Sequence record: OR670491
Reading direction: 5' to 3' (one strand)
From: Escherichia phage vB_EcoM_JNE01
DNA length: 64,000 nucleotides
In this document: piece by piece, positions 43,680 to 59,045 of the stretch
Position numbering within the stretch: the first letter of the stretch is position 1
Layout of the letters: every line of letters begins with the position of its first letter
Made by a program: the position numbers and the translations under genes
Notes under the pieces: model-generated
What the model saw: the letters and a program-made list of their open reading frames with translations, nothing else
The model's database searches: none
Told to the model about the DNA's origin: nothing

Positions 43680-43921
43680 TGCATTACAAACATCTTCCAG
43701 AAATGGAATTCAGACGCATGTCCAAGTCAATCAGACAAAAATACATTGCAACACAAAGGTACAACCTAAAGTACAAGCACAATATTCATGACGAACGATT
43801 GCTGTACGTAGTAGGGACAGAGTATCAGGATAGGGTTGTTAATTCATATTTGTACGCCCTAAAAGAGTACATCCTATATCTTTGTAATAACAACAATAAC
43901 AGTACAAAGGACATAAAATGA
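43679..43921 (+). CDS. small protein, LGTNYQE-motif family
   Basis: motif YVVGTEYQDRVVNSYL; ATG with GGAG RBS chosen (track start 43670). Confidence 0.55.
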   Translation: MHYKHLPEMEFRRMSKSIRQKYIATQRYNLKYKHNIHDERLLYVVGTEYQDRVVNSYLYALKEYILYLCNNNNNSTKDIK

Positions 43922-44238
43922 AATTTAATATCCTAAGAGTATCAAAAAGAGCGATTTATGCATATGAGTTTAATTATGATCAATTTGATGTAGATATCAT
44001 TTTGTACAAGAACAGCCAAGGTGAAATGCTTTTTAAGTACCAAAATAGTGAAGCAGATAATATTCCTTTACCGGATTTAACCAAAATGCAAGAGGATGAA
44101 TTCTTTCAGCAGAGCTTAGTATATGATATTGATTTTTATAGTATAGATATTCTTTTAGCTTTACAGAAAAAGATGCACGAAATCTTTAATGATTTAGTCC
44201 AGGGTGATGATAGCACAAGGTTCGTATTCTATGTTTAG
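43918..44238 (+). CDS. FQxS-motif family protein (first member of main array)
   Basis: motif QEDEFFQQSLVYDID; ATGA coupling. Confidence 0.55.
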   Translation: MKFNILRVSKRAIYAYEFNYDQFDVDIILYKNSQGEMLFKYQNSEADNIPLPDLTKMQEDEFFQQSLVYDIDFYSIDILLALQKKMHEIFNDLVQGDDSTRFVFYV

Positions 44239-44434
44239 AAACATAGATCCCAATCAGTACGCAACAATGTACAGAGATTATTGGATGCAAAGTTCCAGTA
44301 CCAAGTCCCTTGCGGAATTTCGTATGATATATTTTCTTGGTACAGAGAATCAAGAAGAAACGATGCTGGACTATATTGAAGTACTAAAGGTTGAAGTACA
44401 AGATGAATACATATTAGGGGTTATGGAGCAGTGA
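44231..44434 (+). CDS. small protein, LGTNYQE-motif family
   Basis: motif YFLGTENQEETMLDYI; internal ATG of track ORF 44204..44434. Confidence 0.5.
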   Translation: MFRNIDPNQYATMYRDYWMQSSSTKSLAEFRMIYFLGTENQEETMLDYIEVLKVEVQDEYILGVMEQ

Positions 44435-44925
44435 AATCGAGATTCGTTTCAGAGTTCAGTACAGACACGGTGTACGCTAAGGATTTAGTACAGTTATTAA
44501 TTTCATTGCTCAAGGCTAAGGATAATTCAGAAGTTCAAGATTTGTGTAGTTCTTGTATCCGATATGCAGGTGGTAATTTGTATATTAATATAGATGGATT
44601 AGATCGTCCTATATATAAACAATCAAAATTCATCCAAAGTTGGACATACATTGATTTTGATAGTACATATTCGGCGTACACAAAAAGAAGTACAAAAACC
44701 TTTTTTACAATCCAGGGTAAAACGTATAATTTATTAAAAGAGCCATTAACAGAAGAAATGTATTTCCAGATGCAATGCTTAGGATTAAGTACAGAAGCGT
44801 TAAATGCTTATGTGCTTATTGATGCTATGGATTATTTAGATTTAGATAAGTACGTTCCAGACGGATGGAGAATGTCTTTACCTTCGTTATTTGCAGTGTA
44901 CAATACAATACATGGGGAACCTTAA
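44431..44925 (+). CDS. FQxS-motif family protein
   Basis: GTG start after GGAG; motif TEEMYFQMQCLGLSTEALNAYVLIDAM. Confidence 0.55.
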   Translation: MKSRFVSEFSTDTVYAKDLVQLLISLLKAKDNSEVQDLCSSCIRYAGGNLYINIDGLDRPIYKQSKFIQSWTYIDFDSTYSAYTKRSTKTFFTIQGKTYNLLKEPLTEEMYFQMQCLGLSTEALNAYVLIDAMDYLDLDKYVPDGWRMSLPSLFAVYNTIHGEP

Positions 44926-45436
44926 AGTGAATTTTAATGTAATTGATGTTCCTGAATTAGCAAAGAAGATTCAAACAATCCTGTACATAGGTAGTTCAAT
45001 ACGAAGTACAGGTGATTTCATCAGGACAGATAAAGTAAGAATGCAAGGTATGCGTTCATCATATGATGTTAAAGGTATGTGTACATTTGATATGGTCTAT
45101 ACAAAATACGGAAAGGAAAAGAATGCAGTATGTTTATTATCGTTTCCACCGAACCCTATAGCACCGAGAAATCCTAACAATACATTATGGTACGAGCAAG
45201 GTGCAGATACAGTAGAGTTCAAGGGTGTATTTTATGATGTAGAAGATATTCCAGCAACAGAAGAAGGAGCATTCCAGTACAGCTTATTATATCCAGATGA
45301 TGTAATATTTTATAAGAAGTTATTTTGGGAGTTAAACAATTTACCTCATTACACCCCTAATTTTTCAATAGATCTGGAGTGCATTGATACCGTATACGAA
45401 AGTTTAATGGAGTTCATTAGTTATGAAGTACAGTAA
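44912..45436 (+). CDS. FQxS-motif family protein
   Basis: motif TEEGAFQYSLLYPDD; internal ATG of track ORF 44891..45436. Confidence 0.5.
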   Translation: MGNLKVNFNVIDVPELAKKIQTILYIGSSIRSTGDFIRTDKVRMQGMRSSYDVKGMCTFDMVYTKYGKEKNAVCLLSFPPNPIAPRNPNNTLWYEQGADTVEFKGVFYDVEDIPATEEGAFQYSLLYPDDVIFYKKLFWELNNLPHYTPNFSIDLECIDTVYESLMEFISYEVQ

Positions 45437-46004
45437 CCCAGAAGAGACAGTATTTGAGTACACATATGAAAATGCTGTAGAGCTTTGTACAAAATTAAAA
45501 GAAGTCCTTCAAATTTACAATTCCATTGTAAATGACCCAAAGAATAAAGATAAAAATGTAATCCAATTAAATGCATTTTGTTCCATAAACATAGCAAAAG
45601 ACCATTCAGAATTACAGGTCCGTAAAACACAAGATAACGAGGACAAATTCAGATTCATCAGGAATTATCCAATATCAGATGTATTATCATATCTTAGTTT
45701 TCCACCTGGTCCTTGTTTGAGTAAAGAAGATACGGATTCATTTTGGTATAATAGTACATTCCAGTACATGGGTATTAATAACAAGGGTTCAGATGCAACG
45801 GACAGGATTGAAGTGAATCAAAGTCCTAAAAGTGCAGAGGAATTCTTTCAGTACAGTACCCTTATGCATCCAAGAACAATTTTTTATTCATGCGTTTTAG
45901 ATGCTTTGAAGAGTTCAGGTTTAGATTTACCGCATTTACGTTTCAACCCACAGAGCATTCCTAGTGTGTGGGAAATGTTAAAGAACGAGCCGCCTGTGTC
46001 GTAA
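45423..46004 (+). CDS. FQxS-motif family protein
   Basis: motif SAEEFFQYSTLMHPR; followed by hairpin + T7 terminator. Confidence 0.55.
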   Translation: MKYSNPEETVFEYTYENAVELCTKLKEVLQIYNSIVNDPKNKDKNVIQLNAFCSINIAKDHSELQVRKTQDNEDKFRFIRNYPISDVLSYLSFPPGPCLSKEDTDSFWYNSTFQYMGINNKGSDATDRIEVNQSPKSAEEFFQYSTLMHPRTIFYSCVLDALKSSGLDLPHLRFNPQSIPSVWEMLKNEPPVS

Positions 46005-46023
46005 GATACGGGCTTTTTTTGTA

Positions 46024-46052
46024 TTGACAAAAGCAAAAGTACCAAGTACAAT
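46024..46052 (+). promoter_or_regulatory. internal array promoter (TTGACA-N17-TACAAT)
   Basis: ttgacaaaagcaaaagtaccaagtacaat after T-run terminator. Confidence 0.55.
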
Positions 46053-46080
46053 ACAGATATATTAATAAAAGGAACATACC

Positions 46081-46647
46081 ATGCAACCAGTACAACCAGT
46101 ACAACCAGTACCTAAAGTGCCTAAAGTGCATCTAGTAGCCGATTTCGAAGTACCACAAACGTTCGAAGAGTGCAATGCGTACATCGACAAGGTGCTTTGT
46201 ATTTTCAAGGCATTCATTGAAGATGACATTCCATCCTTTGATTACGAACATCCCAGCCAAGGGTACGCAAACATGTACACAAGGAATAACATGAGTGGTA
46301 TTATTCCTCACATCACGAGTACAACGTTTTGGTACACAGATAGTTCAAAGAAATCAAAAGATTTCCTTGTACGCGATTTGAATTTAAACGAACCTTCATC
46401 AGTACCTATGCTGTTTGAGCCTATTCAATCCAAAGAAGAGTATTTTCAGTACAGCACCTTGTATACAGCATTTGAGTTATTTTGTATTCAGATGTACGCA
46501 AGAACAAATGCTTATATTAAAGATAATCCAATCAATTTCAAAAGTGCCAAGATTGTCCATCCTGTATTTGCTGATTTATATGATTCAGTGTATTCAGGTA
46601 AAAAGCCAAAGTACACCACAACAGCGTATAGAGCGTTTCGTCCTTAA
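46081..46647 (+). CDS. FQxS-motif family protein
   Basis: motif SKEEYFQYSTLYTAFE; N-terminal tandem repeat MQPVQPVQPVPKVPKV. Confidence 0.55.
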   Translation: MQPVQPVQPVPKVPKVHLVADFEVPQTFEECNAYIDKVLCIFKAFIEDDIPSFDYEHPSQGYANMYTRNNMSGIIPHITSTTFWYTDSSKKSKDFLVRDLNLNEPSSVPMLFEPIQSKEEYFQYSTLYTAFELFCIQMYARTNAYIKDNPINFKSAKIVHPVFADLYDSVYSGKKPKYTTTAYRAFRP

Positions 46648-46656
46648 GGAGCTATA

Positions 46657-47268
46657 ATGAGTTACATGAGTTCGCACAGATTATTAGATGTGTTAAAGGA
46701 GCATCTTGTTTTCCTTCAGGACAAGTTACGTTCCTTTTCAGAGACATTCCCGGAGGGTAGTAAGTTGGTAGTTCCTTTTCGTGCACCCAATGTGAATGAC
46801 CAGTTCATAGTACACATCAGTACAGATAATATTTCGTTGCGTATTATCAATTCAGATTTAGATTTATTCGGTGTAAGATTCAATACAAAACAAACGGTAT
46901 CGAGTTCGTCCCTGAACAAATGGGATTTTTGTATTGCTCACCCTAATAAAGCTGAAGAGATTTGGATACAAATCAGTGCAGATGGTCATGAGAGATCGCA
47001 TTTTGCGTATTATCCTAAAACAGATAAGTTCCCAGAATCAGTGTATTACAAGAGAACAGATTATGAAACATTGGATTCATTTTTGTTCCAGCAGCAGATG
47101 TTTGAAGGCGTAAGAAATCAAGATGAAATCCAGAAGGACATTGATACAATCCTTGATATCCAAAGTTATCTTGATGAAGACATGTACGTATATCATGGTA
47201 ATTCAGTTATTTTTGAAAATGTATTACCGTCCTTTATCAATGCATTACAAGATATTAAGGTGTTTTAA
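46657..47268 (+). CDS. hypothetical protein (weak FQxS-like motif)
   Basis: 203-aa ORF with AAGGAG RBS; motif DSFLFQQQMFEG. Confidence 0.5.
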   Translation: MSYMSSHRLLDVLKEHLVFLQDKLRSFSETFPEGSKLVVPFRAPNVNDQFIVHISTDNISLRIINSDLDLFGVRFNTKQTVSSSSLNKWDFCIAHPNKAEEIWIQISADGHERSHFAYYPKTDKFPESVYYKRTDYETLDSFLFQQQMFEGVRNQDEIQKDIDTILDIQSYLDEDMYVYHGNSVIFENVLPSFINALQDIKVF

Positions 47269-47501
47269 TGATTTTATTCAATACAGGTCCGTGTTCCTTA
47301 GAAGTGATGTTTTCAAGAAATCGTTTATGGAATCAAAAATTCAGGGACGATACGTTGTTTCACAGGATGGTACAAACCTTCGAAAACGAGAAAGAAGAAG
47401 AATACATACACAGAATCATGTACATAGCAGTCCTCAGTACACCTGAATATTACGAGCGTTTGAGAGCGTTCAATTCCACAATACCAAAGGAGCCTAAGTG
47501 A
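47268..47501 (+). CDS. small hypothetical protein
   Basis: ORF coupled to flanking genes; overlaps alternative-frame ORF 47123..47446, judged less likely. Confidence 0.4.
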   Translation: MILFNTGPCSLEVMFSRNRLWNQKFRDDTLFHRMVQTFENEKEEEYIHRIMYIAVLSTPEYYERLRAFNSTIPKEPK

Positions 47502-47899
47502 CAACCATGAAACCAGTACCGTTAAGATATCAATTTTGTGCTTACGCAGTGCAAATGTACAGTTCAGAAGGTATATGTCAATACGAGTTTGATATTGAGT
47601 CACAGGAGACGAATGAAGAGGTGTACACGGTACGTTACCTTTACGGGAAGTACACCTTCGCTATCAAAGACAAGCACAGAAACATATCCCCTGTTCCTAA
47701 TTTTGTACACGAACCGGAGTTGGAGTTCCAGTACAGCACCTTAAGAGATGACATTCCTGTGCACAAGAAGATGCAGGATGTGCTGATAAAGTTCGTAGAA
47801 TGTGTTATGGCGGTTGACAATTACCCGAATATCCTGTACATTACCTTTGATAGTTACGAAATCTTAGAAGATATGTTCGAGGGATGGGAATTATGTTAA
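47498..47899 (+). CDS. FQxS-motif family protein
   Basis: GTG start after AAGGAG; motif PELEFQYSTLRDD. Confidence 0.5.
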   Translation: MTTMKPVPLRYQFCAYAVQMYSSEGICQYEFDIESQETNEEVYTVRYLYGKYTFAIKDKHRNISPVPNFVHEPELEFQYSTLRDDIPVHKKMQDVLIKFVECVMAVDNYPNILYITFDSYEILEDMFEGWELC

Positions 47900-48087
47900 G
47901 TGAAAATCAGACCAAAATAATTGACAGGATGGTATCCCTGCATATCAGTCAGTACCTTTATGATTCCAGAAGAGGTATTGATACATGGGACATTACAATG
48001 CAATGCATCAGGCTTTTTTATTCGGATTTTAATAATGGATTAAAATGGCTCCAAGAGAGAAAAGATGAGAAAGTACACCAGACATGA
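47884..48087 (+). CDS. small hypothetical protein
   Basis: ORF from track. Confidence 0.4.
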   Translation: MGIMLSENQTKIIDRMVSLHISQYLYDSRRGIDTWDITMQCIRLFYSDFNNGLKWLQERKDEKVHQT

Positions 48088-48265
48088 GTTTATAGTAGAA
48101 ATTCAGGAAGTATTTCAGAGGTGGAAAGCCTTGGGTTTAGAGAATTTTCCGTATCAGGATTTTAAATTATTACATTTTTGGGGTAGTAATATGCAGGACG
48201 CTGTATTAAAAGAGTACCTAAAAGAGATGCAGTACAAGATACAGTACAAGAAGGAACAACAATGA
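48065..48265 (+). CDS. small protein with degenerate LGTNYQE-like motif
   Basis: LLHFWGSNMQDAVLKEYLKEMQYKI resembles family motif. Confidence 0.4.
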   Translation: MRKYTRHEFIVEIQEVFQRWKALGLENFPYQDFKLLHFWGSNMQDAVLKEYLKEMQYKIQYKKEQQ

Positions 48266-48486
48266 GTCCAAATCCAAGTCATGAAGTTGCATTTGATTCG
48301 AGTATAGTACATTTAGTTGTAGAAATGGTTAATGAAGATTTCAAACATGAAATTAACAAAGACCGATGGGAAATGCTTTTGGAGTTCATATTACAAAACA
48401 TCAGGTCGTATTGGACGGAGGCAGTACGAGAAGAGATGTTTTGGAGGGGTGAAATTCAAATGATAAATAACGGCATTTTGGAATAA
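48262..48486 (+). CDS. small hypothetical protein
   Basis: ATGA-coupled ORF. Confidence 0.4.
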   Translation: MSPNPSHEVAFDSSIVHLVVEMVNEDFKHEINKDRWEMLLEFILQNIRSYWTEAVREEMFWRGEIQMINNGILE

Positions 48487-48690
48487 CATGAGGGGGCGGT
48501 TTTACAGGCCGATGTTTTAGGGGTCAAAAAAATTTCCGCTTTAACAAGGTGGAGATTATCTTTTATATATCCTGTTAGAATTGTGCATAAGCGTAGAAGG
48601 AATTTTCGAAAAAGAAAAAAAGACGCGACGCAGGCACGATTCGGGCTGGGAATATATTTCTTTATCTTGTATTTTAATTTGGAGTTCATT

Positions 48691-49035
48691 ATGGATTTTG
48701 ATTATTCGATTTACAGTATAAAGTACCATGATTCTTTTGAATTGTATTGTAATCTTGTAAAGGGTGATAGCAAGCACGATTGTGAGCAATTCCTGCGATA
48801 CGATGGGAAACAATTTCATTTCTATGATTACTGTACTGGAGATAAAGAAGAAGTACCAGATTATACGGGGCTGGATGATGCAGAACTATTTCAGGCTAGA
48901 CTTGTATTTGATTCGAGATTAGTTTGCAGTATTGAAGAGATGATTCCTTTACAACAGGAATTAAAAGAACATTCCGAAAAGAAAGTCCAGTACGGATATG
49001 ATCATCGTTATTACTTTAATCTAGAGGATAAGTAA
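48691..49035 (+). CDS. FQxS-motif family protein, short A-type
   Basis: start MDFDYSIY after GGAG; motif DDAELFQARLVFD; track ORF begins upstream at 48583. Confidence 0.55.
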   Translation: MDFDYSIYSIKYHDSFELYCNLVKGDSKHDCEQFLRYDGKQFHFYDYCTGDKEEVPDYTGLDDAELFQARLVFDSRLVCSIEEMIPLQQELKEHSEKKVQYGYDHRYYFNLEDK

Positions 49036-49511
49036 TGAGTTTAGAAAGTGCACTGGAATTAGGTCGAAGGATAGTTCCTATTATTAATTTCTACCAAAAG
49101 AATTTATATAAGCTAGGATACTTCAATGATGAAATCCTGACTCCAGAAGAACTGGAGTTGGGATACATGTGTATGTTAGCCTTTGGTCAGTATCATACTA
49201 GTGGTGATTGTGATATGAACCTTAGTGGTGGATATCTTGATTTCGAAAGGAATAGTGCACTCCAATTCGTAGACAGAAATGGTTCAGTACAACGTATTGA
49301 ACCGGAAGAGTTTAAAGAATTTAGTACTATGACAGAGGATATGTATTTCCAGTTAAGTACTCTTTACAGTTCAGAAGCACTTGATGCAATGATACTTTTT
49401 GATTACTTATATGGCAGTGATGTTCCTAACTTCGTGTATCTAAGTCTTACTCGCTTGGATATTCTGGAAGAATTATATGAACAGGATTTATTAAAACAGG
49501 TACATATGTAA
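49035..49511 (+). CDS. FQxS-motif family protein, long B-type
   Basis: N-terminus MSLESALELG; motif TEDMYFQLSTLYSSEALDAMILFDYL. Confidence 0.6.
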   Translation: MSLESALELGRRIVPIINFYQKNLYKLGYFNDEILTPEELELGYMCMLAFGQYHTSGDCDMNLSGGYLDFERNSALQFVDRNGSVQRIEPEEFKEFSTMTEDMYFQLSTLYSSEALDAMILFDYLYGSDVPNFVYLSLTRLDILEELYEQDLLKQVHM

Positions 49512-49864
49512 TGGAATTTGAATTTGTAATATCGACACATAGTTTCAAGTTACAGCGTCAGTACTTTTGTAATTTAAACAAAGGTGATATGATACACGCA
49601 GGGAATGAATATCTTCATTACAGTAGTGGTAAATTTACATTTGTTAATTACGATAATTATCTTAATCCACATGAAGAGATGCTGGATTATACAGTACTAC
49701 CAGATGGTGAACTATTTCAGCAGTCCCTGGTATTTGATAAGAAGTACATTTGTTCTTTTGAGGATGTTTGTGCTTTGCAGAAGATCATAAAAGAATACGA
49801 CAAGAGTATTTCTGGGCGTGATATAATAATTAAGGAATATAAGTTCAACCTAGAGGATATGTAA
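49511..49864 (+). CDS. FQxS-motif family protein, short A-type
   Basis: motif PDGELFQQSLVFDKKY...LQKII. Confidence 0.6.
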   Translation: MEFEFVISTHSFKLQRQYFCNLNKGDMIHAGNEYLHYSSGKFTFVNYDNYLNPHEEMLDYTVLPDGELFQQSLVFDKKYICSFEDVCALQKIIKEYDKSISGRDIIIKEYKFNLEDM

Positions 49865-50301
49865 TGAGTTTAGAAAGAGCATTAGAAATTGCTGAGTTGA
49901 TTGATTTGTGCAGAACTAAAATCAAAACTGACTGCCTCAATGGATATCTATACCAGGAAGGCAATTCATATTTCCGAAGTTTATTTGATGAAAGTTCTGA
50001 TAGTATTGAAATGTATGATGATAAGTTAGATACCAGATATACTGTTGAATGCGATGTTAGTTTAGAAGATAATTACATATTCTTTTGTAAGAACTCTAGT
50101 ATTGCATTAAGTTATAATGAGCTTCTCCCTTATTCAGTACTTGAAGGTAATTGGGGTAGTCCAGAATATTACTTCCAGCAAAGTACTATCTACAGTGAAG
50201 AAGTTCTTGATAAACTAGTCATTTTGTGGTACTTTAATAACACTAGTCCCAATAACTTCTACATGGACTTGGACATATTAGATGTAATGAAAGGGGGATA
50301 A
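49864..50301 (+). CDS. FQxS-motif family protein, long B-type
   Basis: N-terminus MSLERALEIA; motif SPEYYFQQSTIYSEEVLDKLVILWYF. Confidence 0.6.
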   Translation: MSLERALEIAELIDLCRTKIKTDCLNGYLYQEGNSYFRSLFDESSDSIEMYDDKLDTRYTVECDVSLEDNYIFFCKNSSIALSYNELLPYSVLEGNWGSPEYYFQQSTIYSEEVLDKLVILWYFNNTSPNNFYMDLDILDVMKGG

Positions 50302-50303
50302 AC

Positions 50304-50783
50304 GTGTCATTTGAAAGTGCCTTTATGGAAGCCCAACGAATCCATGAGTACATGATTCGTATTATTAATGATGATAATCCAAATATAACAAAGTACTGTG
50401 ATGCATCATGGACTGAGTACTACCTATGTACACCAGCACAAAAAAATTACATGTTGGATTCAAATACTCGTATTCTACATTTATGCCCTGGTAGTAATCA
50501 CTTCTACTGTTGTCGTACAGCAGAGCACAGTACTATGGAGTTCAGTAGGAGTAGTCCTATTATTTTTTATAACTGGAATGTAGAGGGTTCTAACTATACT
50601 GACTGTACACACCAGATAGATGCAGAAGTACTGGATGAGCCGTGGGATTCTTCTGATTATTATTTTCAGATGAGCACTGTGTACGAAGAAGATGTACTTG
50701 ACACTTTAGTACTGATGTGGTACTTTAAGCACAGAACAGATTATCCAGATTTCTATCTGGAGTACTTCCACGACATAGGCTAA
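50304..50783 (+). CDS. FQxS-motif family protein, long B-type
   Basis: GTG start after AAAGGGGGA; N-terminus MSFESAFMEA; motif SSDYYFQMSTVYEEDVLDTLVLMWYF. Confidence 0.6.
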   Translation: MSFESAFMEAQRIHEYMIRIINDDNPNITKYCDASWTEYYLCTPAQKNYMLDSNTRILHLCPGSNHFYCCRTAEHSTMEFSRSSPIIFYNWNVEGSNYTDCTHQIDAEVLDEPWDSSDYYFQMSTVYEEDVLDTLVLMWYFKHRTDYPDFYLEYFHDIG

Positions 50784-50792
50784 GAGGATTAT

Positions 50793-51341
50793 ATGGATTA
50801 CACATTTAATGGTTTAGAGTACAGGCACTGTATTGCAATGGCTAAAGTACTGGAGTACGTTGTTACCAGATTGCAATGCAATGAATTTCTTAAGCGAAAT
50901 ATCTTATATCTAAATTCCGATGGTTACTTGTGCCATATTAATGATTTTGTTGACTTTGGTTGGGGCGTTCGTATTGACAAAGATACCATATCAAGAGCCG
51001 GATGCAGGGGTGCAGTTCTTACGCACTGTATTTGTTTTTCTCCTGATAGTAGATCTGTTATTATCAATCACGACAGTCAAAAATATTTTCTGGGTCTGGA
51101 CAATGGAGATTTGGAAGCGTGGTTCTTCCAGAACATTTTAGTACTTGAACCTATGAAAGTACTATATATGGTAGTGTTTAATTATTTGTACAACATTAAA
51201 TGCATAGATTCATTTGATATAGAAATGAGTCTTATGCGTATTATCAATCAAATACCTGAACTCCAGCGTATTACAGAAGAACCGTACTTCAACGATTTCA
51301 CAGAATTATATCGTATGCACAGCTTTGAAGGAGATGAATAA
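50793..51341 (+). CDS. FQxS-motif family protein (divergent)
   Basis: motif GDLEAWFFQNILVLEP; AAGAGGA RBS. Confidence 0.5.
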   Translation: MDYTFNGLEYRHCIAMAKVLEYVVTRLQCNEFLKRNILYLNSDGYLCHINDFVDFGWGVRIDKDTISRAGCRGAVLTHCICFSPDSRSVIINHDSQKYFLGLDNGDLEAWFFQNILVLEPMKVLYMVVFNYLYNIKCIDSFDIEMSLMRIINQIPELQRITEEPYFNDFTELYRMHSFEGDE

Positions 51342-51823
51342 TGTCATTTAAAGGAGCACTTGAAAAAGCTAATACTATTTTCGAGTACTATAAACTATTT
51401 CGTAATGGTGACTTGGATGATCTTTTTCAATGCAGCGATTTTTCTAATTCATACTTTCATACCAATAGTGATGGTAAGACATGGATAGTATACAGTACTA
51501 GTGGATCACGTGAAACTATTGAGTACTGCTGCAATCCAGACAGGGATTATATCTCGTACTGTCATAATTCTGAATATATTAATCTTGAGTTATGGACACA
51601 TGATGACAGTACTTACATGAAGACAACTGTTGATGGTGATGAGTTAAATGCCATGTACCAAGATTGGTTATCAGAAGATTATTACTTCCAGCAAAGTACT
51701 TTGCACAAGGAAATGTATCTTGATGCTATGGTAGTTCTTTCTTATCTTCGTTCTAAGAATTTAAGTCCTTTTTATTTGAATTTAGGTTATCTTGAAGAAA
51801 TCAAGAAGTCAATGCAAGGGTAA
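51341..51823 (+). CDS. FQxS-motif family protein, long B-type
   Basis: N-terminus MSFKGALEKA; motif SEDYYFQQSTLHKEMYLDAMVVLSYL. Confidence 0.6.
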   Translation: MSFKGALEKANTIFEYYKLFRNGDLDDLFQCSDFSNSYFHTNSDGKTWIVYSTSGSRETIEYCCNPDRDYISYCHNSEYINLELWTHDDSTYMKTTVDGDELNAMYQDWLSEDYYFQQSTLHKEMYLDAMVVLSYLRSKNLSPFYLNLGYLEEIKKSMQG

Positions 51824-51826
51824 TCA

Positions 51827-52174
51827 ATGAAAACTGAAATAGATGTAACTAACTTTTCGTACCACGGTACACTGTATTGTATTTTTAAACTCAAGAACAA
51901 AGATGTATCAATTCGTGCTCTTTATAATATTTGTACTACCGAAACTGAATACGATTTGTACATAGTTAAAGATGAACGTGGTGAGCGTGGTAGGATTCCT
52001 AATTACGCTGAATGTTCATACAGGGATGAATATGAAGCTTTTATGTTCCAGGAATCATTAGTATGGGAGAAGGATGTTGATTTCTTCTTAGTAAAAGAAA
52101 TCCAAGAGTACTTCCAACGTAATCACGAAAAGTTTATAAATGATGATTCCAAATTTACTTTAACACTAGGATAA
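51827..52174 (+). CDS. FQxS-motif family protein, short A-type
   Basis: motif YEAFMFQESLVWEKD...EIQEYF. Confidence 0.55.
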   Translation: MKTEIDVTNFSYHGTLYCIFKLKNKDVSIRALYNICTTETEYDLYIVKDERGERGRIPNYAECSYRDEYEAFMFQESLVWEKDVDFFLVKEIQEYFQRNHEKFINDDSKFTLTLG

Positions 52175-52177
52175 TTT

Positions 52178-52570
52178 ATGACATTCGAAGATTCACAAAG
52201 AATTGTAAGTAAATGTATGGAATTAATAAAAGAATTAAAAGAAGTAACAGAATATGATCTATCATTTGCTGAACAAAATGAATTCAAGATTGATGGTTCT
52301 TTTTACTACAATCCCCTTTGGGATAAAAAAATCACATTCTTCTCAAAAGAGGGTTATAAAACAGATTATCCCCTAGAGCCAGAGCACGATCCTAGTACTG
52401 AAGAAGGTTTCTTTCAGTTGAGTTTACTTTACAATGATGATATAGTTCTAATGTACGCGATGTTCGATGCGTTCAAAAAGAGCGATTACGAAGAAATTTT
52501 CTTCCCTAATTATCGTTACCGTGTTGAACTAACTGGGATGGTGAAATGCAAAGTCAAAGTGGAGGAATAG
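52178..52570 (+). CDS. FQxS-motif family protein, long B-type
   Basis: N-terminus MTFEDSQRIV; motif TEEGFFQLSLLYNDDIVLMYAMFDAF. Confidence 0.6.
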   Translation: MTFEDSQRIVSKCMELIKELKEVTEYDLSFAEQNEFKIDGSFYYNPLWDKKITFFSKEGYKTDYPLEPEHDPSTEEGFFQLSLLYNDDIVLMYAMFDAFKKSDYEEIFFPNYRYRVELTGMVKCKVKVEE

Positions 52571-52571
52571 T

Positions 52572-52883
52572 GTGACACACGATGAATATAAAAGAGTCAT
52601 TACTGTGCAGAGTTCACTCCTTGATATAACTAAGGAGGATGCTGCATATGCACTTGTTTGTAAGAATATTCTTTCTGATTACCAAGATTTCTTTACGAAG
52701 AAATACACTGCTCGTTCTGTTTTGTTCACGGTGTACTTGGTAGGGGAAGAACAAATCCAAGAAATGAAAATAAACGAGTACTGTATAAATTTACACGCGA
52801 TATTCTTCAGAGTAGGTAAAAACGGTTCTAACTCATACGCTGCCAGATGTTTCAGTACTGGATACGTTGAATTACTCCCATAG
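52572..52883 (+). CDS. hypothetical protein (no family motif)
   Basis: GTG start after GGAGGAA RBS. Confidence 0.45.
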   Translation: MTHDEYKRVITVQSSLLDITKEDAAYALVCKNILSDYQDFFTKKYTARSVLFTVYLVGEEQIQEMKINEYCINLHAIFFRVGKNGSNSYAARCFSTGYVELLP

Positions 52884-52885
52884 GA

Positions 52886-52913
52886 TTGACACTTGGGAGT
52901 TTTGTGCTATAAT
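52886..52913 (+). promoter_or_regulatory. internal array promoter (TTGACA-N16-TATAAT)
   Basis: ttgacacttgggagttttgtgctataat. Confidence 0.55.
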
Positions 52914-52929
52914 ATTTTTAGAGGTACTT

Positions 52930-53241
52930 ATGACAACATATACAGTTGAGGTTAGCAGTTACGGGACGTACACGTACAGGGCAGGTGTAGTAGGTAAATT
53001 AGATCAGATCCTTGCATACGATGCATTTGAAGATTTCTGGTACATTCCATATCCTAATGAACGCAAATACGCTGATATCAGTGAAATCTTTAAGATGAAT
53101 GAAGAAGAGTTGTTTCAATTCTCATTAGTATGGGAACATAAAATCCCAATGGAAGTCGTTCTTGCACTGAATCCTATCATCATGAATTTAGTACTGAATT
53201 GTGAAACGCCCCGCAACATGAAGATTACATTTGAGGTGTAA
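52930..53241 (+). CDS. FQxS-motif family protein, short A-type
   Basis: start MTTYTVEV after promoter and AGAGG RBS; motif NEEELFQFSLVWEHK. Confidence 0.55.
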   Translation: MTTYTVEVSSYGTYTYRAGVVGKLDQILAYDAFEDFWYIPYPNERKYADISEIFKMNEEELFQFSLVWEHKIPMEVVLALNPIIMNLVLNCETPRNMKITFEV

Positions 53242-53712
53242 ATGATTAATTTAGAGAATAGCAGGACTTTAGCGAATAAGGTTATTACAATTGTTCAGTA
53301 CTACCATACAAACAGGCATCTTCTTACTGAGAATGTTCTGGTAGTTAGTAGGAGTGAAGATTTCGATGTAGATGCCTTAAAGGTATGTGAATGTATTTCT
53401 GAAGATAATTTAACAGAATACAGTGCTCGTTATCAGTACATGTGCTACAATAAGATGAGACGCTTGCACATTTCGAGTGACATGTACCCAACTAAAGATG
53501 AATTCGAAGAATTTGATATCACCAAAGATGAGTGCATGTATGCCTGTACTGAAGAAGGTTTCTTTCAATTAGAGACAATGTATTACCCTGAAGTTGTTGA
53601 AATTATTGCAGCTTTTGGTTTCATTTATAATAGCGATATTAACGTTGACTTCTATCTGGACTTAGATTATCTGGATTATCTTTATGCTGAGGCTACTAAA
53701 AATGAACATTAA
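53242..53712 (+). CDS. FQxS-motif family protein, long B-type
   Basis: N-terminus MINLENSRTLA; motif TEEGFFQLETMYYPEVVEIIAAFGFI. Confidence 0.6.
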   Translation: MINLENSRTLANKVITIVQYYHTNRHLLTENVLVVSRSEDFDVDALKVCECISEDNLTEYSARYQYMCYNKMRRLHISSDMYPTKDEFEEFDITKDECMYACTEEGFFQLETMYYPEVVEIIAAFGFIYNSDINVDFYLDLDYLDYLYAEATKNEH

Positions 53713-54238
53713 TATTAACAATCCAGAATCACTTGAGTACTTTTATTCTTTTATTACTAAAGCAGTTCCTTTGATCAAACAATCATTTCTCGAAGGTACT
53801 GAAGATAAACTTCTGAATTCTAAGTACACTATTGATGGCACAGTCCAAGAAAAATCTTCAGCGTTTCAGTCATGTGAAGTGCGTAATGTATTTTGTAAAA
53901 GCGAAGTGCCTGTTATCATTGGGACAAGTGTGTCTAATTCTTTTATGACAGTAGATGATGATGGTAAAATTCTACGTTTCGAGTACACAAGAAAAAGTAA
54001 TGTCTTTGAGTTATTCACTAATACAAAATACAAGTTCAGTTCTTCGTGTAACGCATTTCTTATTCCTGAATATAATTACACAGAATTTGAAGAACAATGT
54101 TTCCAGTTGCGTTGTACCGATGAGAACTGTGAACTAATGATTTTCTTAATGAAACTAAGAATGGTTATGAATAATACATTTGCAATGTACTTACCGTTCT
54201 TAAAAGTAAATGAAGTATTCAATGAAGGTGTACTGTGA
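53702..54238 (+). CDS. FQxS-motif family protein (divergent)
   Basis: motif FEEQCFQLRCTDENCELMIFLMKL; internal ATG of track ORF 53684..54238. Confidence 0.5.
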   Translation: MNININNPESLEYFYSFITKAVPLIKQSFLEGTEDKLLNSKYTIDGTVQEKSSAFQSCEVRNVFCKSEVPVIIGTSVSNSFMTVDDDGKILRFEYTRKSNVFELFTNTKYKFSSSCNAFLIPEYNYTEFEEQCFQLRCTDENCELMIFLMKLRMVMNNTFAMYLPFLKVNEVFNEGVL

Positions 54239-54444
54239 GTAAAATAAAGTACATCAATGATGATTACATTATGAAGAACGCTATTAAGTACTTCAGTAAT
54301 TCTGCCAATCAGGGTGACAATCTTAAGATGGTGGAGATTCGTGTACTCATATACTTAGGAACACAACACCAGGAAAAATTGATTGCAGAATATCTTGATT
54401 CACTAAAACGACATGTAGAGAAAATTTATTATGGAATACAATGA
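54235..54444 (+). CDS. small protein, LGTNYQE-motif family (outlying copy inside FQxS array)
   Basis: motif IYLGTQHQEKLIAEYL. Confidence 0.55.
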   Translation: MSKIKYINDDYIMKNAIKYFSNSANQGDNLKMVEIRVLIYLGTQHQEKLIAEYLDSLKRHVEKIYYGIQ

Positions 54445-54931
54445 AGTTTTGAAGTTATACGAAGATATTTGTACTGCAATTAAAGTTGTGGAACTTGATA
54501 CAAAGAATCCAAATCCCAAGTTACATACACAGATAGTTAGTCCAGTAGCTTCCTTCCGTAAGATATTAATAAAATCAGACTACGAGATGGAACACTTAAT
54601 GTTTGTACATGATGAGAAGTTGACTAATATTGTACCGAACTCTCATTTCGAACAAGCAATGCATACGTTCATGTCATTCCACAAGGACAGTACTAAAATC
54701 ATGTTACACAGTGATATATACACTGAGTATGATATTGTTCCTGTGGAGTTGAATGCTGACAGTTATTTTCAGTACAGTTTTGTGTACGACGAGACGCTAC
54801 TGATGATGCAGTTTCTTTCTAATCTATACATGCAGAACGATGACCTTCCGAACTTCATTAAGATTAATATTTCATATCTCAAGATGCCACAGTACTTAAA
54901 GATTAAGGAATACTACAGTGATTTACTCTGA
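54431..54931 (+). CDS. FQxS-motif family protein
   Basis: motif NADSYFQYSFVYDETLLMMQFL. Confidence 0.55.
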   Translation: MEYNEVLKLYEDICTAIKVVELDTKNPNPKLHTQIVSPVASFRKILIKSDYEMEHLMFVHDEKLTNIVPNSHFEQAMHTFMSFHKDSTKIMLHSDIYTEYDIVPVELNADSYFQYSFVYDETLLMMQFLSNLYMQNDDLPNFIKINISYLKMPQYLKIKEYYSDLL

Positions 54932-55460
54932 ATACAATTCGTTAATTGAAACTATTGAAAAGTCCAGACGTGCTCATACGTTAATGGTTAAGTACGATAT
55001 TAATAAGTATAAGAAATTTAGTATTCAAGAACTTGAACTCGGTGAAAATACAAGGAAATTTCTTTCTTATAGTGGTAGAATGTTTATCTCTCTTAATTTC
55101 TTTGAGAATCCAGATTTGGAATTGATGCGTTCTATGGTTACATCAATGGACGATAAAATACAAAGTATCTATTTCCGTAATGGCAAGAAGATGGAAATCC
55201 ATGTGTACTATCAGTGTGATGACCGTTTATCATATGATATTACAAACTATCCACAATTCAGTACTTCAGACGATGCAGCTTTATTCCAGTACAGTACTCT
55301 GTACAGTAATTTTGATTTCATGTGCTTGTACATAATCAATGCCCTACGAGAACTGGACTATAACAATTACAACATCAACTGCTCTGTAATGCAGGACGAT
55401 GGTTTCGATGAAGGTATTGATGAGTTACTTACATATCTAAATGAGTACATTAATGAATAA
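54918..55460 (+). CDS. FQxS-motif family protein
   Basis: motif SDDAALFQYSTLYSNFDFMCLYII. Confidence 0.55.
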   Translation: MIYSEYNSLIETIEKSRRAHTLMVKYDINKYKKFSIQELELGENTRKFLSYSGRMFISLNFFENPDLELMRSMVTSMDDKIQSIYFRNGKKMEIHVYYQCDDRLSYDITNYPQFSTSDDAALFQYSTLYSNFDFMCLYIINALRELDYNNYNINCSVMQDDGFDEGIDELLTYLNEYINE

Positions 55461-55513
55461 AATAGAAATAAAATCTTTTTGTAATAGTTTTATAAAAGAT
55501 CTGGAGTACTAAT

Positions 55514-55882
55514 ATGAAACAGGTATTTCGTTATACGTATTACACTACAAAAAAGCAATTGGTTTCTTTATTTGGTTTCAAGACTTTGAAGACAAATGCA
55601 TATCAAAGGGTATTCATTGGCATTGATGATAATGGTTTCTTTCAATTACTGTCCAATGAAAGTGATAAGTCCTATACTATCCCTGACACTACTGTACTGG
55701 GAGAAGGTGAATTATTCCAGTTGAGTACTGTATGGGATGATTCAGAATATGCATGTAATTTTGAGAATTTTGTTCAGTACCAGAAAATATTACGAACTGA
55801 TTTTGAGAACTACCCAGTGAAAGTATTAAGTACTGGAAACGAACAATACAGACAAAAAGTGGTTGAACTTGATGCGTATTGA
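55514..55882 (+). CDS. FQxS-motif family protein, short A-type
   Basis: motif GEGELFQLSTVWDDSE...YQKIL. Confidence 0.55.
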   Translation: MKQVFRYTYYTTKKQLVSLFGFKTLKTNAYQRVFIGIDDNGFFQLLSNESDKSYTIPDTTVLGEGELFQLSTVWDDSEYACNFENFVQYQKILRTDFENYPVKVLSTGNEQYRQKVVELDAY

Positions 55883-56405
55883 AACAATAAGAACACACAG
55901 TGCAGAAACATTCTTTGATATTTGGCTTGTCCAGGAGCTAATGACTATTGGTTCTATTCCTACGAAATTATTAAATTACACACATAACAATAGTAATTCT
56001 GTACCACACCAATCAATTACCGATAGTAGTGGTGTGGTGTACATGCGTAGTAGTACTAATATTAATAATATAAAAAGTGCATACAATAATTCATGTGGCT
56101 TCTTTACTTATAAATCCGATACTCACCCATCATTCAGTACTATATTACAGGGGAATGTAATTTATCTTGACATGTTGAAACCACAAGAGTATACTGACGA
56201 TGTAATTAATGAAATTAGTACTGCAACAGATCCGAATCTGGTAATTGCTTCTATGGTATTCTCTTACATGAGATACAGTGCTATGCCGTGTACGTGGGCT
56301 TCAGCACCTGATCTCAGGAGATATTTAAATTCACTCCTAGGCACAAACTTCAGAGAACATTTAAATGCACGACGATTTATACAAAATAAACTACAGATTG
56401 AGTAG
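55872..56405 (+). CDS. hypothetical protein with C-terminal LGTNFRE motif
   Basis: C-terminal YLNSLLGTNFREHLNARRFI resembles LGTNYQE family; ATG chosen over TTG 55863. Confidence 0.45.
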   Translation: MRIETIRTHSAETFFDIWLVQELMTIGSIPTKLLNYTHNNSNSVPHQSITDSSGVVYMRSSTNINNIKSAYNNSCGFFTYKSDTHPSFSTILQGNVIYLDMLKPQEYTDDVINEISTATDPNLVIASMVFSYMRYSAMPCTWASAPDLRRYLNSLLGTNFREHLNARRFIQNKLQIE

Positions 56406-56718
56406 AAAAGAACTTATACTCAGGATTGGTTATGATGCACGTAAAAAATGTCACAATAATATCATGTACAACAGTACTGAACGTTTTCTTTTTTGTGTTG
56501 GATTTACAAGGTACTTCATTGATGACTTTACGGAGTTAGGTGAAGGGGAACTATTCCAGAACATGTGTGTTCTTCCTGATTACATTAATGTAGATATATA
56601 TGACTTAGTAAAGTATCAGAAAGCATTAAAGTACTTATACAATAACTATCCATGTACACCAGATCCTAAAACTATAGGTTATGAGGTTTATCACTTACCA
56701 GGAAATCTAATATGTTAG
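56365..56718 (+). CDS. FQxS-motif family protein, short A-type (paralogue of 55514..55882)
   Basis: motif LGEGELFQNMCVLPD...YQKAL; N-terminus aligns with 55514..55882. Confidence 0.5.
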   Translation: MHDDLYKINYRLSRKELILRIGYDARKKCHNNIMYNSTERFLFCVGFTRYFIDDFTELGEGELFQNMCVLPDYINVDIYDLVKYQKALKYLYNNYPCTPDPKTIGYEVYHLPGNLIC

Positions 56719-57296
56719 ATAAAGATAAAAAACTACTGTCCCCAAGAAATAATCATTTAAAATTAGATACATTAGAAGAAGCTATCCAATGCGGTAAACA
56801 GTTAGTTGAACTAATCAATGCAATTGAAAATGATGAAATACCACAGATTCAACGCTGTGAAGAAGAATTTGAGGGTGATGGCGATCCTTACTATTACAAT
56901 TTTAGAAAGGAAGATGCTAGAACATCTGAATACGAAAGTGCACTATATACAGTACAAGGTGATTACGACACAAGTGAATACGATCCATGTTTTCAGGGTG
57001 GATTCCTCAGTACTAGTTTAAAATCAGATATAATTGTAGTTGACTGGTATGTACACAGAGATGGTAGTTTAGAGGATAATAATGAACTTCGTCTCGATGC
57101 ATCAGGTATTGAATTTACTGAAGAGTCATTCTTCATGCACAGTACATTGTACTCTCAGTACTGCACTGGTGTTATGGTACTGGCGAAGTACTTAAACCAA
57201 GAACTCAAAAAACCTATCTATCTGGACTTAGATATGCTAGAACAAGCATACAAGTACCACCTTCAAGCCAAATCAAAAAAGGCATCTAAAAAATAG
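56712..57296 (+). CDS. FQxS-motif family protein (FM.S variant)
   Basis: motif TEESFFMHSTLYSQY. Confidence 0.5.
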   Translation: MLDKDKKLLSPRNNHLKLDTLEEAIQCGKQLVELINAIENDEIPQIQRCEEEFEGDGDPYYYNFRKEDARTSEYESALYTVQGDYDTSEYDPCFQGGFLSTSLKSDIIVVDWYVHRDGSLEDNNELRLDASGIEFTEESFFMHSTLYSQYCTGVMVLAKYLNQELKKPIYLDLDMLEQAYKYHLQAKSKKASKK

Positions 57297-57326
57297 TTGA
57301 CCTTCCTCCTTCTCTTGTGATATAAT
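57297..57326 (+). promoter_or_regulatory. internal array promoter (TTGACC-N18-TATAAT)
   Basis: ttgaccttcctccttctcttgtgatataat. Confidence 0.45.
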
Positions 57327-57360
57327 TCTTTTAATATCTTTTTAATGGAGTTATATCACA

Positions 57361-57834
57361 ATGAGCACTCATTTTCTTTGCACTTATCAATCAGCATTTG
57401 CTTTAGCTCAAAAAATCGAATTCCTTTACCATACATTCATTTCCTTCGAGGATGATGAACACATCCAAGTAGGTTCAGAAAGACTTGATTTCAAGGAAAG
57501 TCATAACCAAATTATATATAAAAAATGTTTGTTATTCAGTGTAAATGAAAATTCAGTGAATATCAGGACAAATATAGACCCTTATGTTTGTTATTCCCCA
57601 ACAATAAAGAGATATAAATTATCTACTGCAAGGGGTTATTCAAATGATTATGAAGCTGTTGACATTTTCAGTGAAGAAGATTACTTCATGAATTTGTGTT
57701 TGTTCCCTGAACTGGACGTATATAATCTTACTATCATTTCATACTTCAAGTTAAAGGGCATGGGTTCATTCTATATGGATCTGGATTGCGTTAATGAATT
57801 GTATGAGCATTTTTCTGGAGTACATAATGTATAA
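57361..57834 (+). CDS. FQxS-motif family protein (variant)
   Basis: motif SEEDYFMNLCLFPELD. Confidence 0.5.
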   Translation: MSTHFLCTYQSAFALAQKIEFLYHTFISFEDDEHIQVGSERLDFKESHNQIIYKKCLLFSVNENSVNIRTNIDPYVCYSPTIKRYKLSTARGYSNDYEAVDIFSEEDYFMNLCLFPELDVYNLTIISYFKLKGMGSFYMDLDCVNELYEHFSGVHNV

Positions 57835-58315
57835 GAATGTAATGATGACCGACTACGATTCAGTACTGAAATTTGCAGAAATCGTAACCAAAATACACTT
57901 TGAAGCTTACACTGATAATCCATTCGGTGGTTTATTTTATAAGAAATTCGACTCATACGAACGACCAATCCTCGCTGATCTAAATTATGTAAATGATGAG
58001 AATGCAATGGAACGATATTGTGAGTACTTCAAAGATAGTGATTTCAGTTTAAAAAGTGCATATATGTCATACGCACCTGGAACTGATATATCCATTAATG
58101 ATGGCTATGATAAAGTCCTATACAAATCTGAAGATTTACCAAAGGATTATAGTGAGGATTCATATTTTCAGTACTTATGTATACATGATATCAATACTGT
58201 GAATGTATTATTCTTCTATACTATTCTTCGTAAGAAATATCAGTTGACTAAATGTTTCTTTTTGGATTTTGAATTAATGTCCGATGCAGTACTGGAGTAT
58301 CTCAATGCCGATTGA
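57827..58315 (+). CDS. FQxS-motif family protein
   Basis: motif SEDSYFQYLCIHDINTVNVLFFYTIL; ATG after GGAG chosen (track start 57794; 57842 also possible). Confidence 0.5.
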   Translation: MYKNVMMTDYDSVLKFAEIVTKIHFEAYTDNPFGGLFYKKFDSYERPILADLNYVNDENAMERYCEYFKDSDFSLKSAYMSYAPGTDISINDGYDKVLYKSEDLPKDYSEDSYFQYLCIHDINTVNVLFFYTILRKKYQLTKCFFLDFELMSDAVLEYLNAD

Positions 58316-58646
58316 AATCGAGTTCATGGTTGATTCGGATTATGATTGTTTTATTATCCAGACTAAGTACAAAGATGACTTGTACTTAGTTTATATTCAC
58401 GATAATTCACAGTTCTATATGCATAGAAAAGTATCCAAAACATACACACAAGAAAAGAAAATCAAAAACTATACCAAACTAAGTACAGAAGAACTATTCC
58501 AAATGAGTTGTTCTGACGACTATGATGTGCATTTGATAAAAGAATTACAATTACCGCTTCTTAAATTCCAAAAAGAATGTAATCCTGTATTTGCAAAGCA
58601 CTTTGGTATCCCGTGGGATTATACAACATTTATGTACGAAGGATAA
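58305..58646 (+). CDS. FQxS-motif family protein, short A-type
   Basis: motif STEELFQMSCSDDYD; ATG after GGAG chosen (track start 58284). Confidence 0.5.
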   Translation: MPIEIEFMVDSDYDCFIIQTKYKDDLYLVYIHDNSQFYMHRKVSKTYTQEKKIKNYTKLSTEELFQMSCSDDYDVHLIKELQLPLLKFQKECNPVFAKHFGIPWDYTTFMYEG

Positions 58647-58649
58647 GAT

Positions 58650-59045
58650 ATGAAAACAATGCATGTAATTTTACGTGTTGAAACTGCTTTACGTGTTGAT
58701 ACTTCTCTTAAATATGCCAATAATTCATATGATTCAGTAGTATATGAACGTTGGGTTAAGCTTGACAAGACGAACACTTTACGCTATATTTCTAATACAA
58801 ATAAATTCGATGTGAACTCCGAGAACGTTCCTAGGCTCGCTCACATGAGTTCTGAAGAGGTATTTCAGTACTCCTTAGTGCACAAGCATAGTGCTGATTT
58901 GAAGGTTCTGAAGGCCGTTCAGGAGGCTCTATTGGAGAATAACAGGACTCGTTACGTTACAATTGAGGTGGATGCACCGGATTATATGTTAGATGATGAC
59001 GAATTCTATGAGAAACATTTCCCTAAGAAACAATGGAGGGATTAA
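58650..59045 (+). CDS. FQxS-motif family protein
   Basis: motif SSEEVFQYSLVHKHS. Confidence 0.55.
   Translation: MKTMHVILRVETALRVDTSLKYANNSYDSVVYERWVKLDKTNTLRYISNTNKFDVNSENVPRLAHMSSEEVFQYSLVHKHSADLKVLKAVQEALLENNRTRYVTIEVDAPDYMLDDDEFYEKHFPKKQWRD

Follow-up and report, generated by a model that had tools for sequence, protein, structure and literature searches.

The segment from position 48,691 to position 53,712 of a 64,000-nucleotide (nt) stretch of Escherichia phage vB_EcoM_JNE01 (record OR670491; the whole stretch is referred to here as the window) lies within a run of small, related genes whose products share a phenylalanine-glutamine motif and which we call the FQxS family. On balance, this segment is probably part of a large and ancient tandem array made up of a single family, specific to jumbo phages, that evolves by birth and death. 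Turnover of the array would have proceeded by single-gene and small-segment duplications, microhomology deletions, and translocation, with recombination between the conserved 5' ends of paralogues as a further possible route. The A B A B succession of short (A) and mid-length (B) genes at the start of the segment would then not reflect an obligate A-B operon that was amplified repeatedly, as a preliminary description of this DNA had suggested. Genes in the window are named by their start coordinates (e.g., 48691), with L denoting the long type; gene numbers for slurp01, A4, Turkey3, RaK2, and Turkey5 are positions within the respective extracted syntenic locus.

Megablast of positions 48000 to 56000 returned a single near-identical record, that of Escherichia phage Turkey5 (351 kb; 96.0% identity across 100% of the query), and about 30 jumbo coliphages of the Asteriusvirus type, including slurp01, PBECO4, 121Q, and SP27, which match patchily at 76 to 80%. 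Judged from these matches, the source genome is that of a ~350-kb Asteriusvirus-like Escherichia coli jumbo phage. In Turkey5, every gene across the region is annotated as "hypothetical protein." We compared the window with the syntenic arrays of slurp01, A4, and Turkey3 (Asteriusvirus type) and of Klebsiella phage RaK2 (Alcyoneusvirus; JQ513383), the two deep lineages set against each other being the Turkey5-like and the PBECO4-like phages.

The array covers about 20 kb, with about 34 to 38 tightly packed family members on one strand in the window, and in Turkey5 it extends beyond the point corresponding to the window end. Its open reading frames (ORFs) encode 100 to 205 amino acids (aa), and most carry [FY]-Q-x-[STC] about 40 to 50 residues ahead of the C terminus. 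The full family motif is [ST]EEx[YF]FQxS[TL][LVI]Y, and [FY]Qx[STC] is present in 92 of the 112 proteins retrieved. Most products are acidic (isoelectric point [pI] of 4 to 5), with net charges of -12 to -18 for the B types, and every array gene has its own Shine-Dalgarno (SD) sequence, placed inside the 3' end of the gene before it. A few unrelated ORFs, as well as three small genes that belong to another family, are scattered among the members. HMMER, run exhaustively against 1.84 billion representative proteins with a profile of B and L members, yielded just 103 clusters at E values of <1e-3, and matches in the BFVD structure search were exclusively uncharacterized proteins of 121Q, SP27, and RaK2. 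Nothing came near any Pfam cutoff and no family recurred when 43 members were scanned (the same was true of the first 10), none of the PADLOC anti-phage defense families matched any of 10 members, a sequence-profile search of the PDB gave no match, and the predicted structure had no match among solved folds. The acidic MAM33/p32 family (p32/gC1qBP; PF02330) gave neither a Pfam match nor a clear fold match, and the distant representatives P0048 and P0053, both from uncultured relatives, had no tblastn match among isolate phages.

RaK2 carries at least 35 FQxS genes (ORF363 to ORF439; locus 13583-44061, equivalent to 245.6 to 276.1 kb of the record), and its array holds short A-like, B-like, and long members, with the long ones filling the distal half, as in the window. 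Since A-like and B-like genes both occur in RaK2, the array and the A/B split appear to be older than the split between the genera, and the array is thus ancient and not recently amplified. Signs of recent tandem amplification were indeed lacking: paralogues within the array are 20 to 51% identical, and relatives differ just by the presence or absence of single genes. The array is a further case of lineage-specific multigene expansion in large viruses. The family itself had not been described in the papers that we found on Asteriusvirus, RaK2, and jumbo-phage paralogues; those on RaK2, CBB, and jumbo-phage comparative genomics mention paralogues just in general terms.

The preliminary description had distinguished two subtypes, and clustering bore this out. 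A-type products have 103 to 131 aa and B-type products have 145 to 194 aa. In an all-against-all blastp comparison, 43918, 48691, 49511, 55514, and 56365 formed an A cluster, with 52930 and 58650 linked to each other, and 44431, 49035, 49864, 50304, 51341, 53242, 56712, 57361, and 59046 formed a B cluster, with 52178 loosely attached. Hidden Markov models (HMMs) seeded with A or B members scored their own type at 98 to 193 bits and the opposite type at 0 to 15 bits. The PHROGs split in the same way (phrog_15629, phrog_13866, phrog_32253, and phrog_34600 for A, phrog_9317 and phrog_12674 for B, and phrog_22855 for the long gene 50793), with matches that cover most of the profile and annotations that all read "unknown function." The E values (Table 1) include 3.7e-12 for phrog_32253 among the A types and range from 1.4e-41 to 2e-13 for B types against phrog_9317, with 52178 weaker than the other B genes. 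The types are, moreover, not limited to two: roughly half of the ~35 members form a heterogeneous group of longer proteins (165 to 205 aa) that fall in neither cluster. The A subfamily has an extra motif of its own, a conserved Q in the helix following FQxS. By their sequences, A and B are two long-established subfamilies that were already distinct in RaK2. In phage A4, the 181-aa product of A4_348 (locus 7064-7600) has a B-like HMM score of 26 and is annotated as "DNA ligase," which looks like a misannotation; a 470-aa gene within the same array, A4_379 (locus 21131-22543), is annotated as "methyl-accepting chemotaxis protein."

In the AlphaFold2 (AF2) model of the B-type protein 49864, an N-terminal helix is followed by eight strands, the short FQxS helix (predicted local distance difference test [pLDDT] value of >90), a long helix, a strand, and a C-terminal helix, and the model of the A-type protein 49511 has the same core minus both terminal helices (overall confidence values are given in Table 1). 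The A core is thus predicted to consist of a beta-meander, the FQxS helix, the long helix, and a strand, to which B would add the N-terminal helix (MSLExALExAxxI) and the C-terminal helix. The form E-E-x-Y-F-Q-(G/S/x)-S of the motif overlaps the recognition consensus of tobacco etch virus (TEV) protease, ExxYxQ(G/S), as in P0048 (STEEVYFQGSTLY), P0067 (SEEGYFQGSTVY), and the RaK2 gene at locus 32823-33314. This resemblance is probably a coincidence, and a protease site is unlikely because the motif lies in the helix that was modeled with the highest confidence. The many members that carry EExYFQ(G/S) nevertheless pose a practical hazard for TEV-cleavable expression constructs.

The order of the genes does not follow the regular A/B alternation that had been read from this segment. 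The coordinates of the eight genes placed in pairs (48691/49035, 49511/49864, 51827/52178, and 52930/53242) are correct and match the Turkey5 annotation, but four genes had been skipped: the genes actually run A B A B B L B A b - A B (b, a short B-like gene), and further along the array they run A L A B B L A A B, likewise without regular alternation. The pairs had also been described as translationally coupled through a 1-nt overlap of stop and start codons. Such an overlap is present in the first two pairs, whereas a 3-nt spacer separates 51827 from 52178 and 52930 directly abuts 53242. The TAATG overlap occurs at A>B junctions (49035 and 49864) but also at a B>A junction (49511), at an L>B junction (51341), and at 47268; tight packing therefore characterizes the array as a whole and not the A-B pairs in particular. 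What holds is the adjacency of the two types. A B gene comes directly after six of the nine A genes, compared with 2.0 expected under label permutation (P value of ~0.002 for the whole array and ~0.005 within the A/B zone), and this association is real in this phage. In addition, a B gene of the 49035/53242/24192 group comes after an A gene in every lineage examined; some functional link between A and B may therefore exist.

Comparison with relatives indicates that the arrangement of this block is not conserved. The window array is largely collinear with that of slurp01 (reciprocal best hits at 25 to 57% identity), but the block matching 48691-53712 reads AAAA BBBBB A - B in slurp01, AAAAA BBBB A B B in Turkey3, and A ? 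A - BBBBB in A4, and the numbers of A and B genes in it vary (4:6 in the window, 5:6 in slurp01, 6:6 in Turkey3, and 2:5 in A4). The slurp01 orthologues of 49511 and 49864 (20530 and 21748, respectively, each with 57% identity and 100% bootstrap support) are not adjacent, as one A gene and one B gene lie between them, and in RaK2 a B-like gene follows an A-like gene in just one of six cases. The orthologue of the long gene 50793 lies about nine genes further downstream, after the orthologue of 59510, in slurp01 (locus 30685-31248), A4 (19323-19955), and Turkey3 (21923-22480). From these positions, this phrog_22855 member appears to have been translocated within the array, and its different position in the three other phages indicates that the two deep lineages differ by a rearrangement of this block. 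The A B A B look of 48691-50301 would be an arrangement specific to the Turkey5-like lineage. In contrast to this block, all four phages keep the later modules (A A B B L / A A B L), and in each of the four lineages the partners of the pairs 56365/56712 and 58650/59046 lie next to each other.

The trees do not suggest that the pairs duplicated as units. Neighbor-joining trees were built on proteins of 20 to 40% identity, with 61 to 81% bootstrap support at key nodes. The A genes 48691 and 49511 fall in one clade (99%) with slurp01 20883, 20530, and 19507. Among their B neighbors, 49864 groups with 50304, 51341, and five B genes of slurp01 (68 to 81% bootstrap support), and 49035 lies outside that clade. 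Sister A genes thus appear to have nonsister partners, which is a moderate, not an absolute, rejection of unit duplication. Across seven pairs, similarity among A genes was not correlated with similarity among their partner B genes (Mantel r = 0.16, P value = 0.27). The most recent events that we could see involved B genes only or single genes. The youngest paralogue pair seen anywhere is B only (slurp01 21252/22658; 58% identity), and 50793 has moved by itself. An extra A-type gene, intact in Turkey5 (112 aa; locus 19442-19780), has been lost from the window by an in-frame deletion at a 6-nt microhomology (AGAAAT), leaving a 19-codon remnant that still carries the SD sequence for the next gene (Table 1); no B gene was lost.

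One observation initially favored unit duplication: in the 48691/49035 and 49511/49864 units, about 45 nt around the A/B junction are ~90% identical, compared with 50 to 60% in the flanks. The 5' end of the B gene (ATGAGTTTAGAAAG.GCA), however, is conserved at the nucleotide level in orthologues and paralogues of all lineages, and we therefore downgraded the junction as evidence; the part specific to the first two units amounts to ~20 nt on the A side only. For these first two pairs, a single old unit duplication or gene conversion is possible. The first ~23 nt of B genes (ATGAGTTTAGAAAG.GCA.T.GA) are almost identical among paralogues and also between lineages whose proteins are otherwise 30 to 57% identical, as seen at 49035 and 49864 in the window, 21748 and 22215 in slurp01, and 9591 and 10075 in A4, of which A4 9591 looks chimeric between two 5'-end types. 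These conserved ends may represent a recombination or gene-conversion box or, alternatively, a constraint on translation initiation.

Among the alternative histories, an ancient segmental duplication of a larger module (A, B, and then L), followed by single-gene duplications inside modules, is one that we entertain tentatively, with the A-run > B-run > L-run order as its surviving trace. The window can be read as A x B L L..., A B / A B B L B / A b / A B L x L L / A L A B B L / A A B L L and slurp01 as AAAA BBBBB / A - B L x L L / A A B B L / A A B L, and the pattern recurs in every lineage. Interleaved subfamilies are also hard to obtain by single-gene tandem duplication alone; because two distinct subfamilies are interleaved in modules, old multigene duplications are the simplest explanation, and very old duplications spanning both types probably took place. 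On the other hand, we detected no co-phylogeny between modules, and the best paralogue matches of 43918, 44431, and 44912 fall in different modules; the signal is probably saturated at 20 to 30% identity and thus poorly resolvable with present data.

We consider it unlikely that A and B are the two components of a complex, encoded together in a translationally coupled operon, and that the array grew by repeated duplication of this two-gene unit. The separable subtypes, the nonrandom adjacency, the similar junctions of the first two units, and the two pairs kept in four lineages would all fit such a history, and the absence of the terminal helices of B from the A models makes complementation in trans conceivable. 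Set against these points are the A-run-then-B-run order in three lineages, the incongruent partner trees, the unequal and variable A:B numbers, the duplications and losses confined to one type, the overlaps shared with other junctions, and the arrangement in RaK2. The earlier proposal is therefore retained in part, for the two subfamilies and their adjacency, and repeated A-B unit amplification as the origin of the pattern is not supported.

Returning to the birth-and-death interpretation, rates of substitution relative to Turkey5 show that most members are functional genes under purifying selection, as the ratio of nonsynonymous to synonymous substitution rates (dN/dS) is 0.05 to 0.5 for most of them; for A genes, it is 0.09 to 0.38, with the exception of 51827 (0.70). 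Four consecutive genes (50304-52174) constitute a hot spot, with 81 nonsynonymous and 21 synonymous changes, compared with 247 and 237, respectively, elsewhere in the array (Fisher P value = 9e-8). The synonymous rate (dS) is not raised within the hot spot, which argues for accelerated protein change and not for imported divergent DNA. For 50793 alone, 45 nonsynonymous and 13 synonymous changes were counted, and the proteins are 78% identical though the phages are 96% identical. This block may be currently diversifying.

Near-consensus sigma-70 promoters in the window number 30 on the plus strand versus 5 on the minus strand, and 22 of them are located 17 to 58 nt ahead of a start codon. The array itself contains four (46024, 52886, 57297, and 60591), two of them paired with terminator-like hairpins, and a fifth (43374) is just upstream of it; the promoter ahead of 57361 is also found ahead of its orthologue in slurp01, A4, and Turkey3. 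We infer that the promoter at 52886 splits 48691-53712 into two transcription units and that the array is transcribed early by the host RNA polymerase as several polycistronic units, one of which would start at 52930. The 204-nt gap at 48487-48690 holds two terminator-like hairpins (48497-48511 and 48531-48557) and no recognizable sigma-70 promoter; slurp01 has TTGAAA-17-TATAAT at the equivalent place (locus 19616). Outside the array, the plus strand of 13432-37672 is dense in sigma-70 promoters (TTGACA-16-TATAAT, 12/12, at 14 sites), almost all of them in short intergenic gaps 30 to 58 nt before small genes, and RaK2 has a similar promoter pattern upstream of its own array (locus 739-14619).

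The gain and loss of genes between close relatives, together with the hot spot, fit a birth-and-death family of early host-interaction or counter-defense genes. We therefore propose, tentatively for the whole of this functional scheme, that the products are nonvirion, diversified binders of host components or defense factors, whose genes are read early by the host sigma-70 RNA polymerase, starting at consensus promoters within the array. In this scheme, the conserved FQxS core would serve as a scaffold and the variable beta region as a specificity surface. A more specific version strikes us as improbable: FQxS proteins would be early effectors with a new fold, the short A types pairing with B and L types as combinatorial hetero-oligomers, so that a library of ~40 copies neutralizes many host defense and housekeeping targets, with 50304-52174 under positive selection.

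The internal protein (IP) locus of phage T4 has a conserved 5' end and N terminus, a hypervariable remainder, and a polymorphic gene content, and its products are basic. The FQxS array resembles it in that the MSLExALE N terminus and its DNA are conserved across lineages while the remainder diverges, and in that its content is polymorphic between relatives. It is nevertheless very improbable that the products are packaged, injected proteins of this kind, with the B N terminus as a capsid-targeting sequence: they are acidic, the conserved B N termini have no (L/I)xE cleavage motif, and the consensus sigma-70 promoters suggest early and not late expression. Furthermore, the RaK2 virion proteins detected by mass spectrometry all map to two other genome clusters, outside the FQxS array (PMC3622015). 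The IP-like reading was rejected. Least credible of all is that the short A ORFs are decaying, functionless truncations of B or L genes; their shortness, the missing terminal helices, and the one A gene reduced to a remnant would fit decay, but the A genes are under purifying selection apart from 51827, carry their own SD sequences, have orthologues in all Asteriusvirus lineages and A-like counterparts in RaK2, and form a coherent subfamily with its own motif, on which grounds we rejected this possibility.

Several points weigh against the interpretation that we favor. Homology of A and B is weakly supported by sequence; their common ancestry is suggested by the motif, by predicted secondary-structure elements that follow one order, and by their place in one array, and not by similarity over the full length. 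An hhalign comparison of the A and B profiles aligns 23 columns around the motif (E value = 1.5e-3; probability, 17%), and because this alignment is limited to the motif, the merging of iterated HMMs was not taken as proof of full-length homology; the B/L profile likewise retrieved no A types from the 1.84-billion-protein library. The trees are modestly supported, and two deep lineages are insufficient to polarize the ancestral gene order. The A>B adjacency, including the B group that follows an A gene in each lineage, is not what random placement would give. No promoter was recognized directly upstream of 48691, and the anti-defense or host-interaction role is drawn solely from context, acidity, turnover, and the dN/dS hot spot.

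Like other lineage-specific paralogue expansions in jumbo phages, the FQxS array consists of dozens of diverged tandem copies of unknown function in one clade; unlike the known case, a zinc ribbon, it has no recognizable domain, and it has distinct short and long subfamilies. Genomic accordions offer a second comparison, and poxvirus K3L is one of them. Another is the segmental amplification of T4 tifA against toxIN, as presented in a preprint (bioRxiv 10.1101/2022.04.14.488369). The FQxS array shares with accordions the tandem viral copies, the arms-race rationale, and copy gain and loss between close relatives, but accordion copies are near identical and recent, whereas FQxS paralogues are far more diverged, even in the youngest pair, and their order is largely collinear across genus-level divergence. 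The MGF360/505 genes of African swine fever virus and the ankyrin and BTB families of poxviruses are old, diverged arrays, clustered terminally or regionally and of variable copy number, that are thought to modulate host responses; their likeness to the FQxS array is by analogy only, and hosts, folds, and mechanisms differ.

Jumbo phages of the genera Asteriusvirus and Alcyoneusvirus are candidate agents for phage therapy, and >80% of their genes are "hypothetical." The FQxS family comprises ~35 to 45 genes, roughly 7% of the gene count, in what we infer to be an early region transcribed by the host RNA polymerase, and it combines the lack of a known fold with gene turnover and a local burst of amino acid change between 96%-identical phages. 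If it were a host-takeover or counter-defense library, a considerable share of the "dark" coding capacity in these phages would be accounted for, and host range could be affected. Beside this, the claim of an amplified two-gene unit matters less; it is only partly right.

Table 1. Features of the FQxS array and of segment 48691-53712 (promoters and terminators are predicted)
Feature	Coordinates	Strand	Evidence and remarks
Whole FQxS-family array	43918..63784	+	ORF list, motif scan, iterated HMMs, alignment, Turkey5 locus
Sigma-70-like promoter (11/12)	46024..46052	+	Directly 3' of terminator-like hairpin 45992-46013
A-type Aa, 114 aa, ELFQAR, pI 4.6	48691..49035	+	phrog_15629 1.5e-30; groups with slurp01 20883 (61% bootstrap)
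B-type Ba, 158 aa, MSLESALE..., MYFQLSTLY, charge -17	49035..49511	+	TAATG overlap with Aa; outside 49864 clade
A-type Ab, 117 aa	49511..49864	+	phrog_15629 7.6e-39; TAATG overlap with preceding B gene; AF2 pLDDT 71
B-type Bb, 145 aa, YYFQQSTIY	49864..50301	+	phrog_9317 1.4e-41; AF2 pLDDT 80, predicted template modeling score (pTM) 0.75
B-type Bc, 159 aa, GTG start	50304..50783	+	No A gene ahead; start of dN/dS hot spot
Long member, 182 aa, WFFQNI	50793..51341	+	phrog_22855 6e-28
B-type Bd, 160 aa	51341..51823	+	TAATG overlap with preceding long gene; dN/dS about 1.0
A-type Ac, 115 aa	51827..52174	+	phrog_32253; orthologue slurp01 23573
Short B-like b, 130 aa, GFFQLSLLY	52178..52570	+	phrog_9317 7.5e-5, weak B score; 3-nt spacer after Ac
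Unrelated 103-aa ORF without motif	52572..52883	+	ORF list, blastp, HMM scores
Sigma-70-type promoter, perfect, TTGACA-16-TG-TATAAT (12/12, extended -10)	52886..52913	+	17 nt ahead of A gene 52930
A-type Ad, 103 aa, ELFQFSLVWE	52930..53241	+	ORF list, HMM scores
B-type Be, 156 aa, GFFQLETMY	53242..53712	+	Abuts Ad, no overlap
19-codon in-frame remnant MNKIEIKSFCNSFIKDLEY* of A-type gene	55453..55512	+	Comparison with Turkey5
Later module: A(55514), L?(55872), A(56365), B(56712), B(57361), L(57794), A(58284/58305), A(58650), B(59046)	55514..59513	+	Conserved in all lineages
Sigma-70-like promoter (11/12 with TG) ahead of 57361	57297..57326	+	Equivalent site in slurp01, A4, Turkey3
Terminator-like hairpin 60559-60576, then sigma-70-like promoter 60591-60619	60559..60619	+	Ahead of 60650

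The GC content across the window is 32 to 40%, and no tRNA genes were found in its 64,000 nt. Two other multigene families are present. A second large paralogue array, with about 10 tandem paralogues of ~360 to 450 aa, occupies 2114-13382 on the minus strand; the two members tested are RCC1-repeat (beta-propeller) proteins (PF00415 at 1e-7 and 6e-10; RCC1-like domain at 1.5e-20 and 8e-26). A third family, of 66 to 101 aa, has 21 members by iterated HMM (E values of 1e-18 to 1e-26) in an array at 39061-43921 that adjoins the FQxS array upstream, and three copies of it lie inside the FQxS array (44204-44434, 48065-48265, and 54235-54444).

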